From positions 10,110-74,109 of the forward strand of contig JAGXKT010000007.1 in assembly GCA_018335035.1 (NCBI GenBank): DNA of 64,000 bases, given 5' to 3'. Positions within the stretch are counted from its first letter, which is position 1. Each line of letters opens with the position of its first letter. A program made the position numbers and the translations under genes. Below the pieces are notes generated by a model that was not told where the DNA came from, did no database searches, and worked only from the letters and a program-made list of their open reading frames with translations. The DNA is from Phycisphaerae bacterium (GTDB lineage: Bacteria > Planctomycetota > Phycisphaerae > SM23-33). This document shows positions 730 through 54,051 of this stretch, in pieces.

Positions 730-2437
<1,708 letters not shown>

Positions 2438-2623
2438 GGTTCACCTCGATTGGGGGGTCAAGCGTTGCATTGTCGCCAGCGGGAGCGGCAAGTCAAGGCG
2501 ACGCCGCGATCAACACCCGCCGTCTGCGGAAAGGACGGCGTTCGTGCGATGCTCAAGACGCGTTTGGAGGCGAGTTCGGAGACCGGAGGTCGCAGTTCGA
2601 AGAGCAACGGGCCGCGCCGTTCG

Positions 2624-2644
2624 TCGATCTTCGACCTTCGACCT
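2624..2644. repeat. Three tandem 7-nt units (TCGATCT TCGACCT TCGACCT) in the gcvT-lysS spacer
   Basis: Read directly and frame-checked against overlapping track ORF 1583..2731 (..SIFDLRPLH..). Same unit type as the repeats at 34561-34712 and 40826-40853. Confidence 0.6.
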
Positions 2645-2672
2645 CTGCATGCCCCTGTGTCGCTTGTCTTTG

Positions 2673-3767
2673 TCACGCGACGGAGGGCAGATCGGTCAGC
2701 CGGGCGGCGAGGGGCGTCTGGCCGACGGTGATGATCAGCTCCGCGGCGGGCTCCAGCGTGCGGGCGACGTGGGCCAGGGCGATCGGCCGGTCCAGCGCCG
2801 GTGAATACGTCCCGCTGGTGACGGTGCCGACCTCCCGCCCGGTCGCGTCCCGCACGGGCGAGCCGTGGCGGGGGATGGTTTGCGCCGCGTCGGGCTCGCA
2901 CAGGAGCCCGCCCAGGCGGCGGGGCGGCGGCTTGCGGCGATGTTCTTCCAGCGCCGCCCGCCCGATGAAGCCGTCGCGGTCCCAGTCGATGCGATCGTCG
3001 AGCCCGGCGGTCATGGGGTCGATCGTCTCGTTGATTTCGTGCCCGTAGCGGCAGCGCCCGGCCTCGATGCGCAACACGTCCAGCGCCGCCAGGCCGACCG
3101 GCGCCATGGCGTTGTCGCCGGCCTTGGCGGTCACGTACCGCCAGGCGCGTCCGGCCAGCATGCCCGGAACCTGCACGCACGCGCTCCACAGGCCGACGCC
3201 GTCGTCGCGGTCGGCGATGTAGCGGGCGACCATCAGCGAGCCGAACAGCACGTCGCCCGGTGTCAGCCCGCTGACGCGGAACGGCAGGACGGCGTCGAGC
3301 CGGCGGGGCGCGTCCGAGCCGGCGACGCGGACCATCGCCGTCTTGGCGGTCTGGTCGTCCACCTTCGCACCGTGCTCGTCGCACAGCGCCTGCAGGTGGG
3401 CCAGGACCTTCTCGCGGCACAGCGGGCTGGTCAGCAGCACCCAGAACCGCTCCAGGCGGATCAGCCGGGCCGCGTCCAGAATGCCCGCCTGCTCGGTCAG
3501 CAGGAGGGTATCGGCGGCGGTGTTGTCCTCCATGTGCGCCACGTCGTGCGTGCAGACCCGCTCCAGCAACCCCAGCGCCCCGTCGCCGCGGATGCGAATC
3601 CGCCCGACGTGCGAGCAGTCCGCCACGCCGGCCGAGCCGCGCACGCGCGAGGCCTCGCCCACCGCGTCGCCGTAGCTGATCGGCATCAGCCGACCCGCCT
3701 CGTCGGCGAGCTTCGCCTCGGCCGCGACGTGCGCGTCGTGCAACGGGGTGTGTGTCGGTTCGGTCAT
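2673..3767 (-). CDS. gcvT: Aminomethyltransferase, glycine-cleavage T-protein family
   Basis: 364 aa. The N-terminus TPLHDAHVAAEAKLADEAGRLMPISYGD and the C-terminal GTVTSGTYSPALDRPIALAHV barrel are typical of the GcvT/YgfZ folate-binding fold. No gcvH or gcvP lies adjacent. Confidence 0.75.
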   Translation of the reverse strand: MTEPTHTPLHDAHVAAEAKLADEAGRLMPISYGDAVGEASRVRGSAGVADCSHVGRIRIRGDGALGLLERVCTHDVAHMEDNTAADTLLLTEQAGILDAARLIRLERFWVLLTSPLCREKVLAHLQALCDEHGAKVDDQTAKTAMVRVAGSDAPRRLDAVLPFRVSGLTPGDVLFGSLMVARYIADRDDGVGLWSACVQVPGMLAGRAWRYVTAKAGDNAMAPVGLAALDVLRIEAGRCRYGHEINETIDPMTAGLDDRIDWDRDGFIGRAALEEHRRKPPPRRLGGLLCEPDAAQTIPRHGSPVRDATGREVGTVTSGTYSPALDRPIALAHVARTLEPAAELIITVGQTPLAARLTDLPSVA

Positions 3768-50957: not shown

Positions 50958-51034
50958 ACGAGCCCTGTTGATGGGTGAACAGGCCGCGGTGTGGTCAACG
51001 CGCCGCGGCCTGCGTGTTCAGATGGAGCGGTCCT

Positions 51035-52144
51035 ATGCGCCCCAGCCACGCCATCGCCGAACGGATGCGCCACATCGACGCGTCGGGGATTCGCAAGGTC
51101 TTCGACCTGGCGGCCCGGATGGACGACCCGATCAACCTGTCCATCGGTCAACCGGATTTCGAGGTGCCCGAGCCGGTCAAGGACGAAGCGGTCGCCGCGA
51201 TCGCCCGCGGGGAAAACAAATACACGCAGACGCAAGGCACGGCCGCGCTGCGCCGCAAGCTGGCTGCGGCGTGTCGCGACGAGTTCGGCTGGGCCGACGA
51301 GCCGCCCGTGCTCGTGACCTCCGGGACCAGCGGGGCGCTGGTCCTGGCGATGCTGACGCTGGTCAACCCCGGTGATGAGGTCGTCTTTTTCGACCCGTAC
51401 TTCGTGATGTACCGCCACCTGGTGCACCTGGCCGGCGGGGTGCCGGTCTGTGTCGAGACGTACCCGGACTTCCGCCCGGACCTCGATGCGTTTGCCGAGG
51501 CGATCACGGAGCGCACCCGCCTGCTGATCCTCAACTCGCCGGCGAATCCCACCGGGGCGGTCTACACGGCCGACGAGCTTCGCGCCATTGCCGAGATTGC
51601 CGCCGAGCGAGGCCTGCTGGTGATCTCCGACGAGATCTATAATGCGTTTTGCTACGATGCGCCGTTCGCCTCAATGGCCGCGGTTTACGACAACACGCTG
51701 CTGCTGCGGGGGTTTTCCAAGTCGCACGCGATGACGGGCTGGCGCGTCGGCTGGTGCACCGGCCCGACGGGCATCCTGGAGAAGATGACGATGCTTCAGC
51801 AGTACAGCTTCGTCTGCTCGCCCAGCATGGCTCAGGCGGGAGCAGTTGCGGCGCTGGACGCGGACATCTCGGCCCACGTTGCCGCCTACCGCCGCAAGCG
51901 CGATAAGGTCCACGCCGCGCTGGGCGAGACGTTCGGGCTGGTTCGGCCGGGCGGGGCGTTCTACGCCTTCGTACCGGCTCCCGGCGGCGACGCTACGGGA
52001 TTCGTGACCCGCGCGATCGAGCACAACGTCCTGGTCATCCCCGGCAGTGTCTTCTCCCAGCGCGACACGCACTTCCGCATCTCCTACGCCACGAGCGACG
52101 ACCAACTCGATCGCGGGCTGGACATCCTCCGGTCGCTGGCTTGA
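51035..52144 (+). CDS. Pyridoxal-phosphate-dependent aminotransferase, class I/II
   Basis: Internal ATG gives MRPSHAIAERMRHIDASGIRKVFDLA. Shows NSPANPTG and the PLP lysine in FSKSHAMTGWRVGW. Confidence 0.9.
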   Translation: MRPSHAIAERMRHIDASGIRKVFDLAARMDDPINLSIGQPDFEVPEPVKDEAVAAIARGENKYTQTQGTAALRRKLAAACRDEFGWADEPPVLVTSGTSGALVLAMLTLVNPGDEVVFFDPYFVMYRHLVHLAGGVPVCVETYPDFRPDLDAFAEAITERTRLLILNSPANPTGAVYTADELRAIAEIAAERGLLVISDEIYNAFCYDAPFASMAAVYDNTLLLRGFSKSHAMTGWRVGWCTGPTGILEKMTMLQQYSFVCSPSMAQAGAVAALDADISAHVAAYRRKRDKVHAALGETFGLVRPGGAFYAFVPAPGGDATGFVTRAIEHNVLVIPGSVFSQRDTHFRISYATSDDQLDRGLDILRSLA

Positions 52145-52236
52145 TATGCCGTTTGGTGCATGAAGCATTTGTCCGACTTCATTCCGGTAAGCTGTTTGTT
52201 AGGAGGAATATCGTCGCCAAATGGCGCGTCGCGCCG

Positions 52237-52242
52237 TATAAT
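52237..52242 (+). promoter_or_regulatory. Perfect TATAAT box 27 nt upstream of the Panacea gene
   Basis: cgccgTATAATgccg, frame-checked against track ORF 52141..52362. No convincing -35 element (TCGCCA at the 17-nt spacing). Confidence 0.3.
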
Positions 52243-52268
52243 GCCGATGTAGAGGGGAAGCGAGTCCA

Positions 52269-52817
52269 ATGTTTTCGTTCAACCTATACAAGACGATTCA
52301 AGCGACAACGTATCTCCTACGCCAGCCGGGCACGGATCACTGCGCTTATCTCAAGGTGCTGAAGTTGCTGTATGTGGCCGAGCGGGAGAGTCTGGCTGAG
52401 ACGGGCCATCCGATAACGGGTGACCAGACGTATGCGATGCCGCACGGCCCGGCGTTGAGTGCCACGCTGAATCTGATGAATGGCACCGAGACCCATGACC
52501 TGTGGGTGCGGCATATTCAGGATGCGGGCAACTACGAGTTGAAGGTCAGCGAGGATCCCGGCACAGACCTGCTCTGCCCCTACGAGTTGGAGAAGCTGCG
52601 AGATGTTGCGCGGCGGTACGCGGACCAGACTCGGTGGCAGGTGCGGGACGCGACGCACGAGTTACCGGAATGGAAATCCAACGACCCGGGGCAGCAGTCG
52701 TCTAAGCCCATTCCTGTCCGCGATATCCTAGTGGCCCAGCGTTGCGAGTCTCGGCTGGGCGCCATTGAGAGGGATTCCGAGGCACAAGAGGCACTGAGCA
52801 GCGCGTTGGGGGACTGA
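52269..52817 (+). CDS. Panacea (DUF4065, SocA/GepA-like) domain protein; putative antitoxin PanA
   Basis: 182 aa. YLKVLKLLYVAERESLAETGHPITGDQTYAMPHGPALSATLNLM matches the DUF4065 core (KLxKLLYyad..g.pitg..y.a...GPv). GC content and codon usage are lower and different from the flanking genes. Confidence 0.8.
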   Translation: MFSFNLYKTIQATTYLLRQPGTDHCAYLKVLKLLYVAERESLAETGHPITGDQTYAMPHGPALSATLNLMNGTETHDLWVRHIQDAGNYELKVSEDPGTDLLCPYELEKLRDVARRYADQTRWQVRDATHELPEWKSNDPGQQSSKPIPVRDILVAQRCESRLGAIERDSEAQEALSSALGD

Positions 52818-52821
52818 CTCG

Positions 52822-53202
52822 ATGGGGTTGACGTTGGGGGCCGTGTTTTGGGCACGCCTGGGTGGCAGCCCCGTTGAGCATATGTATGTGGTGATCTCGC
52901 GCCCGGAGGAGGATCAGATTGCCGTTGTGCCGCTGACCACATGGGAAGAGTGGAAGGACGATAGCTGCTACATTGAAGCGGGGGAGTATGAGGAACTGCA
53001 TCACGACTCCTGTGTGGACTATCGCCATGCGCCCATCGTCCAAGTTGTCAAGATTGAGATGGCGATAACCAAGGGGGTTCTTCGTCAGTCCGAGCCGGTT
53101 TCAAAGTCGTTGCTTATGAGAATCTGGGAGGGTGCGGCAGATACCCGCTTCCTTCCACGTCAGTGCGAGGACATCCTTTCTCGCCAAGGACTGATCGCAT
53201 AG
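52822..53202 (+). CDS. Unassigned 126-aa partner of the Panacea gene; candidate toxin with a faint MazF/PemK-like pattern
   Basis: Starts 4 nt after the PanA stop. GAVFWARLGGSPVEHMYVVISRPEEDQIAVVPLTT ... HHDSCVDYRHAPIVQVVKIEMAI..GVLRQSEPVSKSLLMRIWEGA parallels the MazF layout (GDI..VDL...RPvlVis....v.vaPlTs ... DSvvl.dQirtidk.rl...G.l). Confidence 0.55.
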   Translation: MGLTLGAVFWARLGGSPVEHMYVVISRPEEDQIAVVPLTTWEEWKDDSCYIEAGEYEELHHDSCVDYRHAPIVQVVKIEMAITKGVLRQSEPVSKSLLMRIWEGAADTRFLPRQCEDILSRQGLIA

Positions 53203-53280
53203 TGACGCCTCGCTGCTGGGGGTAAAGTGCGGTTGTAGCTCTATTTATTGCGTTTTTCGGAGTACCTGAACGGCAAGTTG

Positions 53281-53317
53281 TGAATACATATTCATAAAAT
53301 GAATAATCGATTTGACA
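53281..53317 (+). promoter_or_regulatory. Candidate TetR operator palindrome TGAATA-CA-TATTCA plus a TTGACA box upstream of the efflux operon
   Basis: Palindrome at 53281-53294, a third TGAATA half-site at 53300-53305 and TTGACA at 53312-53317, followed by an A/T-rich aatatatag. All lie in the low-GC spacer before tetR (ATG 53377). Confidence 0.4.
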
Positions 53318-53376
53318 AGTGAGCAAAGAATATATAGCGTAAAAACAGGCTCGAACAGTCACGAAAGGCGTTTCGC

Positions 53377-54051
53377 ATGCCTTCCCAGACGCGCAAACAA
53401 CGCGAGCGCGAGGCGCACCGGCGGGAGATTCTCGCCGCGGCCGAGCGCGTGTTCGTCCGCAAGGGCTACTACGCCGCGACGGTCGAGGAGATCGCCGCCG
53501 AGGCGGAGTTCGCCGTCGGGACGCTATACAACTTCTTCGACGGCAAGAAGGCGTTGTATCATGCGGCCGTGAGTGAGATTATCGGACAGCTCTACGCCGA
53601 CGCGCGCCGCCGGGCGCTGGGTTTGGATGATCCGGAGCAGGCCGTCGGGGCGCTGATCGAGCTGGAACTGGAGTATGCCGAGCGCCATCGCGGTTTCCTG
53701 CGTGTGACGTTGGAGATGGCGCCCGGCGGCGAGCTTGATCCGGCCGAGGGGCTTCCCGACGAGGCGCAGCGCGTCATTGACCAGTATCGCCAAGACGTGA
53801 TCGAGGTCTTCCGCCGCGGGGTCGAGCGCGGCGTGTTTGACGCGCTGGATCCGTTCTACCTCGCCCTGTGTCTGGAGGGGATCGTCAAGGCGTTCATCAC
53901 GTACTGGTCCCGTCATGAGCCGGACGAACCGCTGGCGGTGCGATGCGAGAAGCTCAAGCAGACCTTCATCGGGCGGATCAAGCTGCGCCAGACGGGACCG
54001 GCCGCCGAGGCCGAGCCCCGCGTGGACCGTGGACAGGGGGGGCAATCATGA
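53377..54051 (+). CDS. TetR/AcrR family transcriptional regulator
   Basis: 224 aa. The N-terminal HTH is REILAAAERVFVRKGYYAATVEEIAAEAEFAVGTLYNFF. Confidence 0.92.
   Translation: MPSQTRKQREREAHRREILAAAERVFVRKGYYAATVEEIAAEAEFAVGTLYNFFDGKKALYHAAVSEIIGQLYADARRRALGLDDPEQAVGALIELELEYAERHRGFLRVTLEMAPGGELDPAEGLPDEAQRVIDQYRQDVIEVFRRGVERGVFDALDPFYLALCLEGIVKAFITYWSRHEPDEPLAVRCEKLKQTFIGRIKLRQTGPAAEAEPRVDRGQGGQS

Follow-up and report, generated by a model that had tools for sequence, protein, structure and literature searches.

We found that two adjacent genes in a 64,000-nt stretch of DNA from a Phycisphaerae bacterium (contig JAGXKT010000007.1 of assembly GCA_018335035.1; the whole stretch is called the window below) probably make up a type II PanAT toxin–antitoxin cassette, which was acquired horizontally and has an aminotransferase gene on one side and a tetR-RND efflux operon on the other. 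The first gene, panA, encodes a protein with a Panacea (DUF4065) domain, the putative antitoxin; the second, panT, encodes a small protein predicted to have the fold of the MazF/PemK toxins. An earlier note on this DNA, made from the letters of the sequence, had singled out the two genes as a candidate new toxin–antitoxin pair. Both open reading frames (ORFs) are located exactly where the note had put them, on the same strand, with 4 nt between the stop codon of panA and the start of panT. The pairing is not new: combinations of Panacea with a cryptic MazF-like toxin were catalogued in 2022 as clusters T5, T6 and T8, and the claim of novelty falls because members of the panT family are listed in T6, in which a pair from Pseudomonas moraviensis has been validated (Kurata et al. 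2022, PMC8832971).

The arrangement of the two genes is conserved in a wide range of genomes. A degenerate DNA pattern for D/E..C.[LIVMF]..G[DE]HP...H...[VI].Y was run over 185,579 reference genomes and gave at least 120 matches, and 118 of the 120 listed were true members of the panT family as judged by a hidden Markov model (HMM). Among 129 panT family ORFs in the loci that were gathered, at least 116 are directly preceded by a Panacea-like ORF on their own strand, most commonly with a 4-nt overlap (gap −4), and all 110 upstream partners submitted to Pfam turned out to be PF13274 proteins. The 13 exceptions include four artefacts of ORF start choice, where the Panacea ORF is present, five locus edges and one toxin fragment; the remaining three are two loci with a divergent Panacea gene (L017 and L063) and one locus without any Panacea gene (L049). 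The same pattern applied to IMG/VR matched 64 viral contigs. These yielded 63 true members, 60 with PanA upstream and three at locus edges. Altogether, a panT homolog is found directly downstream of a Panacea gene in at least about 180 independent genomic and viral loci. No third gene recurs across 187 modules, the largest neighbour family being present in 13 of the 187, all of them related prophages. Since the pairing recurs and no third gene does, panA–panT is a self-contained, highly mobile two-gene cassette. The neighbourhood survey proposed in the note thus identified panT as the conserved partner of panA. With regard to the criteria used by Kurata et al. for PanAT loci, the 4-nt spacer of the window pair is well within 100 nt, the pair is not part of a conserved operon of more than three genes, and its conservation extends over at least 110 genomic loci and 60 viral contigs.

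The hosts of the cassette belong to Planctomycetota, Proteobacteria, Nitrospirota, Chloroflexota, Spirochaetota, Chlorobiota, Verrucomicrobiota, Elusimicrobiota, Firmicutes and others. In a Helicobacter pametensis prophage (BK070131.1, locus L001, 3232–4836) a PF13274 gene is followed after 10 nt by a panT homolog, and the small terminase gene comes directly after the pair. Four distant panT homologs on long metagenomic contigs were inspected as well; each of the four has a Panacea gene immediately upstream.

The panA product (182 aa) matches the Pfam model PF13274 (SocA_Panacea) with 68.9 bits (E = 8.8e-19, gathering cutoff 25.7). The match takes in residues 31–136 of the protein and positions 2–113 of the 113-position profile, which bears out the DUF4065 assignment of the note. 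PF13274 is the sole Pfam family in this protein. The Pfam search found no DNA-binding domain and none of the HTH, ZBD, PAD1 and Phd-C domains, an architecture described as standalone (‘noNTD’). A C-terminal tail of 46 aa is free of domain matches, and a small unrecognised neutralising element could sit there. Besides the match to phrog_1281 (E = 4.9e-19), the protein can be aligned with 109 partner proteins of other loci, every one of them a PF13274 protein. The start codon of panA is preceded by a Shine–Dalgarno-like GAGGGG.

The panT product has no match in Pfam or NCBIfam, and neither of the two proteins matches a PADLOC defence model. The only hit among phage protein families is to the unnamed phrog_19071 (E = 4e-12), and a word-indexed protein search returned nothing beyond the window's own protein. 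Far more was found by searching 1.84 billion cluster representatives exhaustively with HMMER: the homologous clusters (at 50% identity) number 939 with a threshold of E ≤ 1e-3 and 127 with one of E ≤ 1e-10. Almost all homologs are single-domain proteins of 105–140 aa, and all family members that carry a name in the databases are called ‘hypothetical protein’. An alignment of 114 family members (A1) has the consensus GDTF...HLwVVISDP...VVxVNxTT...KDxSCxL..GDHPF..H.SCV.Y....G......P.S..LL.RI..GA..S...P......L..QGLI. Near-invariant positions, including G6, H20, S26, C49, Y67, L119 and Q122, are all present in the window protein, which keeps P28, T39 and H61 as well. A four-ligand zinc site made of C49, H56, H61 and C64 was considered and rejected; position 64 is often Y, V or F, and no covariation was seen. 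The panT gene, too, is preceded by a Shine–Dalgarno-like sequence, GGGGGA.

Fold and family of PanT

With an alignment of 70 sequences, AlphaFold2 produced a model of PanT with a predicted local distance difference test score (pLDDT) of 96 and a predicted template-modelling score of 0.89; the single sequence without an alignment gave a pLDDT of 35, which is unusable. When this model was compared with the PDB by Foldseek, the best 49 matches were all endoribonucleases of the MazF/PemK/EndoA type (probability 1.00). The alignments to MazF/PemK chains were essentially full-length, with template-modelling (TM) scores of 0.5–0.69 and root-mean-square deviations (rmsd) of 3–4 Å. CcdB appeared first at rank 50, with TM scores of 0.38–0.46 and an rmsd of 10 Å. 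A search of a viral structure library with the same model returned PemK/MazF toxins too. Going by the predicted structure, PanT is a cryptic MazF-fold protein, and the loose resemblance to MazF/PemK that had been noticed in its layout is upheld by the model and the Foldseek search. Sequence searches of the PDB, with the single protein or with the family profile, gave nothing meaningful.

The name Panacea comes from a survey of DUF4065 neighbourhoods in which 88 clusters of partner toxins were defined (Kurata et al. 2022, PMC8832971). Toxins of clusters T5, T6 and T8 were described as ‘hypothetical’ and linked to EndoA/PemK/MazF by HHpred alone, with a probability of ∼99.5%. For the T6 pair of P. 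moraviensis it was reported that PanT shows toxicity in E. coli, with protein synthesis as the process specifically blocked, that PanA neutralises it and that the two proteins form a complex in pull-downs (PMC8832971).

The panT family was connected to T6 through enterobacterial members. A Photorhabdus member shares a 90%-identity cluster with WP_065389115.1, a toxin that Dataset S1 of the survey lists under T6 for Photorhabdus namnaonensis PB45.5, antitoxin first, with a gap of −1 (PMC8832971). In the genome of this strain, the family HMM matches the gene right after PanA (E = 3e-23; recorded overlap of 1 nt). The same was observed in Chimaeribacter coloradensis 2016-Iso4 (E = 2e-25; recorded overlap also 1 nt), a strain that is present in T6 as ‘Yersiniaceae bacterium 2016Iso4’ (PMC8832971). 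Over T6 members, the E-values of the family profile range from 1e-21 to 1e-25. The P. moraviensis toxin is linked to the window PanT through the T6 cluster, in which members of the panT family are listed, and not by direct sequence comparison. An assignment to T5, where Photorhabdus is listed with a gap of 3, was dropped once WP_065389115.1 had been mapped to T6. Judged by profile matches, PanT of the window fits best into a T6-related family, as a divergent member of a planctomycete type whose cluster may be T6, T5 or T8. Several Pasteurellaceae T6 toxins are labelled ‘terminase’ in RefSeq (Dataset S1, PMC8832971), a label probably carried over from a neighbouring prophage gene.

Insertion site and neighbouring elements

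The 1232-nt islet between the aminotransferase gene and tetR stands out by its base composition. Its GC content, 0.557, is the minimum for that length across the 64 kb (mean 0.675, standard deviation 0.028), and only 0.04% of 1232-nt windows are as low. The GC content is 0.601 in panA and 0.564 in panT, compared with 0.67 in the flanking genes; at third codon positions (GC3) panA with 0.749 and panT with 0.669 are the bottom two among 43 putative genes (mean 0.858, standard deviation 0.052). The sliding-GC and codon checks thus agree with the description of the islet as AT-richer than its surroundings. Codons ending in A or T make up 28.4% of the islet codons versus 11.6% in the flanks (Fisher p = 4e-13). 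Four such codons, TTT, AAT, TAT and ATT, had been named in the note as typical of the pair. TAT and ATT are indeed enriched, at 2.3 versus 0.4–0.6 per 100 codons in the flanks, as are GAT and CAT, while TTT and AAT stay at the flank level (0.6 versus 0.5–0.6 per 100 codons). A tRNA gene was sought around the islet and none was found; no convincing flanking direct repeat was seen there, and no integrase is among the called neighbour genes, in keeping with what the note had reported. An Rfam scan of 51900–53600 revealed no known RNA family.

The aminotransferase points to a host in Planctomycetota, probably of a Phycisphaerae-like lineage. In the closest reference genomes this enzyme is 79–82% identical to that of the window. 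One of these relatives (L132) has the gene order aminotransferase, tetR, outer-membrane factor, membrane-fusion protein, with neither panA nor panT; the spacer between the aminotransferase gene and tetR is 249 nt there and 1232 nt in the window. Phage-borne copies of the cassette have a median GC content of 0.50. The site without the pair in the relative, the low GC and GC3 of the two genes and the low GC of the phage-borne copies together support insertion of a cassette of ∼1 kb between the aminotransferase gene and tetR. In a DNA alignment of the relative's spacer with the spacers of the window, local scores were 17–24, which is not significant given shuffled sequences with a mean of 20.3 and a maximum of 29. 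Because the spacers are too diverged for a significant alignment, the cassette edges given in Table 1 are approximate to within a few tens of nucleotides.

Table 1. Coordinates (window numbering) of the panA–panT cassette and of the features next to it
Feature	Position	Strand or orientation	Basis or remark
panA (gene 1), standalone Panacea (DUF4065) antitoxin gene, 182 aa	52269-52817	+	PF13274 match
panT (gene 2), putative cryptic MazF/PemK-fold toxin gene, 126 aa	52822-53202	+	predicted fold, family profile
Inserted cassette, approximate extent (promoter + panA + panT)	52207-53240	+	length difference, weak spacer similarity
Sigma-70-like promoter candidate for panAT, TCGCCA-17 nt-TATAAT	52214-52242	+	consensus scan, 10/12 matches
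Perfect palindrome GGCGCG-T-CGCGCC	52223-52235	.	within promoter spacer, read off sequence
Promoter-like site before tetR	53278-53307		consensus scan
TetR-type half-sites TGAATA, TATTCA, TGAATA	53281-86, 53289-94, 53300-05		read off sequence
Class I/II aminotransferase gene	50975-52144		left neighbour of pair
tetR gene	53377-54051	same orientation as panA-panT	right neighbour

A consensus promoter scan of the region found two sites, versus 0.8 expected from shuffled sequences. The candidate promoter of panAT is located 27 nt before the panA start codon. The palindrome within its spacer is a possible operator; such an operator would sit oddly with a PanA that has no recognisable DNA-binding domain and with literature arguing that Panacea is not an autoregulator. 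The other promoter-like site, before tetR, is overlapped by TetR-type half-sites ∼75–95 nt upstream of that gene. A box, ATTCATAA[A/G]ATGA, is common to the right spacer of the window and the relative L132, and a similar box, ATTCATAAGATGA, is located upstream of tetR in L132 (7213–7225). The note had regarded AT-rich spacers as the bounds of the islet. The right spacer (53203–53376) is AT-rich as stated, with a GC content of 0.425; going by its motifs, it most likely belongs to the tetR operon, as a candidate TetR operator, and not to the islet, and its AT-richness would be explained by the candidate tetR promoter and operator that it contains. The tetR gene is followed by an outer-membrane factor gene, a membrane-fusion protein gene and an RND pump gene. 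From the end of panT to tetR (53203–53376) the + strand contains no predicted intrinsic terminator; the tetR-RND operon points the same way and could be reached by read-through transcription from the cassette.

Several observations were made at other loci of the family. In L017 (3112–4313, a Pirellulales metagenome-assembled genome) and L063 (169–1405, a Dehalococcoidia metagenome-assembled genome) the toxin and Panacea genes are divergent and 250–340 nt apart; these are rare rearranged variants of the cassette. In L005, the Panacea gene that precedes the distant homolog P0160 (3451–4014) is uncalled in the assembly and has a low-complexity C-terminal half, which suggests a frameshift by assembly error or decay. 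Just upstream of this PanAT pair (2426–3140) there is a pair consisting of a nucleotidyltransferase gene (PF01909/PF18765) and a HepT-like gene (PF01934), and the region looks like a small cluster of toxin–antitoxin modules. In Singulisphaera acidiphila DSM 18658 (NC_019892.1, locus L112, 2578–2760, minus strand) the toxin ORF ends at 60 aa after an intact PanA and the downstream conserved toxin block persists in another frame, an apparent case of a frameshifted or pseudogenised toxin beside a retained antitoxin.

Proposed mechanism and its alternatives

In the mechanism that we propose, panA and panT would be co-transcribed from their own promoter. PanA, as a standalone Panacea protein, would bind PanT directly and hold the toxin inactive; on loss or inactivation of PanA, PanT would be freed, and free PanT, with its MazF/PemK fold, would arrest growth by blocking translation, most probably via RNA cleavage. 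The translation block by PanT and the direct inhibition by PanA are suggested by the predicted fold and by what the T6 relative does. Four properties are thus carried over by analogy from P. moraviensis: toxicity, its neutralisation, the formation of a complex and the specific block of protein synthesis. In line with this proposal, mutagenesis showed that standalone Panacea domains neutralise their toxins directly; the same authors hold a role of Panacea in transcriptional autoregulation to be improbable and suggest that it may be a sensor (Ernits et al. 2023, PMC10440598).

Several points weigh against this interpretation. The Pfam PemK model (PF02452) did not detect PanT, and sub-threshold PemK_toxin matches were obtained for only four of 114 relatives, the best with E = 1.2e-3. 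An hhalign comparison of the family with a small alignment of MazF, Kid and ChpBK (reference sequences confirmed by a PDB search with E = 1e-41 to 1e-49) had a probability of 4%. In this low-confidence register, which agrees with the strand positions of the model, the N-terminal G-D motifs of the panT family and MazF align, Thr39 of PanT falls on T52 of MazF and the near-invariant His20 on R29, and the β1–β2 ‘GSEQxG’ loop of MazF is deleted in the panT family. R29 and T52 are the catalytic residues of E. coli MazF. With His in place of the catalytic Arg and the β1–β2 loop missing, MazF-type chemistry of PanT is not assured; RNA cleavage is the inferred chemistry, with His20 and Thr39 in the places of the catalytic Arg and Thr in this register. 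The connection to T6 is also distant. In pairwise comparisons the window PanT scores 17–25 bits against enterobacterial T6 members, with 31% identity over 59 residues, and the link holds at the profile level only, through the members in P. namnaonensis and Chimaeribacter. Of the other two MazF-like clusters, the T5 toxin of C. bovis is toxic and its PanA is toxic too (PMC8832971). As for the insertion, there is one comparator genome, and a deletion in its lineage would formally account for the same difference.

The idea that panA and panT are chance neighbours with no functional unit is hardly credible. In its favour one can only say that lying side by side is in itself no proof of a shared function, and it is effectively refuted by the co-occurrence data, the order, strand and near-zero spacing being repeated in at least about 180 loci of many phyla and phages with unrelated flanks. 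Another reading, which we regard as unlikely, is that the toxin has little or no activity in this host and that the pair is a decaying or domesticated remnant that no longer arrests growth. Eight of 25 PanT candidates were non-toxic in E. coli, among them the MazF-like T8 toxin of F. xanthum (PMC8832971), itself a further point against the proposed mechanism. Position 56 of the window PanT, also to be counted on that side, is Tyr where 86% of the relatives have His, and the truncated Singulisphaera acidiphila copy indicates that decay occurs in planctomycetes. Yet Tyr56 recurs in nature, in 7% of the family, the other near-invariant residues listed above are kept, neither ORF is interrupted or shortened, both have plausible ribosome-binding sites, and an identical PanT protein is present in three independent assemblies. 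That PanT has the MazF/CcdB fold and is not an RNase, acting on another target (as CcdB does on DNA gyrase) or by binding alone, appears quite improbable. The fold is common to the RNases MazF and Kid and the gyrase poison CcdB, which is also among the fold matches; the changes at the presumed active site just described fit such a protein, and we found in the literature no RNase assay for a T5, T6 or T8 member. The MazF chains, however, rank far above CcdB in the fold search by both TM score and rmsd, the specific block of protein synthesis by the P. moraviensis T6 toxin is MazF-like, and in the low-confidence register the catalytic Thr of MazF has a Thr as its counterpart in PanT and the catalytic Arg a His, near-invariant in the family, that could serve as a general acid/base.

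A different question is what the cassette does for its carriers. It is conceivable, though we would sooner doubt it than accept it, that its role is mainly anti-phage abortive infection, where Panacea would sense a phage cue and free PanT, and translation would stop in the infected cell. Such a role concerns the biology and is compatible with the toxin–antitoxin mechanism. Carriage by phages and prophages is frequent (63 IMG/VR contigs, the Helicobacter prophage and the Pasteurellaceae T6 members labelled ‘terminase’), and Ernits et al. (2023, PMC10440598) propose a Panacea sensor and tie toxin–antitoxin systems to defence systems. Against it stand the lack of PADLOC matches to either protein and the position of the pair, which stands alone in the window with no surrounding defence island; moreover, no phage test of a PanAT pair with a MazF-like toxin was found in the literature. 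A more specific version, which we consider fairly unlikely, holds that T6-type toxins, this planctomycete branch among them, represent a separate catalytic form of the MazF fold (His20 for Arg, with Cys49, His56 and Tyr67 near in sequence, and no β1–β2 loop). Such toxins could differ from the classical ACA-type mRNA interferases in RNA substrate or chemistry and, together with Panacea as a phage sensor, would constitute a mobile abortive-infection module. A type II toxin–antitoxin cassette that entered between the aminotransferase gene and the tetR-RND operon remains our preferred reading of the locus.

Comparison with known systems

The family is large (939 clusters), everywhere annotated as ‘hypothetical protein’ and invisible to Pfam, NCBIfam and PADLOC, and a profile built from alignment A1 would allow naming thousands of PanAT toxins. 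The locus adds a planctomycete example with a fairly clean insertion site to a cassette for which carriage by phages is very common. A concrete hypothesis for how this branch of MazF proteins works is offered by the His that replaces Arg in the presumed active site; beyond that, the locus is an ordinary accessory toxin–antitoxin cassette.

The system most similar to the window pair is PanA–PanT of P. moraviensis (T6). In both, a standalone Panacea gene comes first and is followed by a gene for a ‘hypothetical protein’ of ∼125–135 aa that has a MazF/PemK fold and no CDD or Pfam match; the two genes overlap or nearly touch, and the toxins belong to a homologous family at the profile level. Unlike the enterobacterial T6 members, the window PanT has a C-terminal L..QGLI motif and represents a remote, planctomycete-type branch.

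With MazE–MazF, Kis–Kid and PemI–PemK the pair shares a full-length match to the toxin fold, the antitoxin-first order and translation as the expected target. PanT has an N-terminal G-D motif as MazF does, and in the low-confidence register a Thr at the end of strand 3 takes the place of the MazF catalytic Thr. The antitoxin is a Panacea domain and not an AbrB-type MazE, and PanT differs from MazF in being outside PF02452 detection and, in the same register, in having His for the catalytic Arg and lacking the ‘GSEQxG’ loop.

The founding DUF4065 system, SocA–SocB of Caulobacter crescentus, has the same Panacea/DUF4065 antitoxin domain. SocB, which has no relation to MazF, acts by blocking the replication clamp; SocA serves as a ClpXP proteolytic adaptor and not as a direct inhibitor. 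In the survey SocB is placed in a separate cluster, T10 (Kurata et al. 2022, PMC8832971). As to CcdA–CcdB, CcdB and the PanT model fall into one broad fold superfamily; the structural match is much weaker, and CcdB targets DNA gyrase, whereas the T6 relative of PanT blocks translation.

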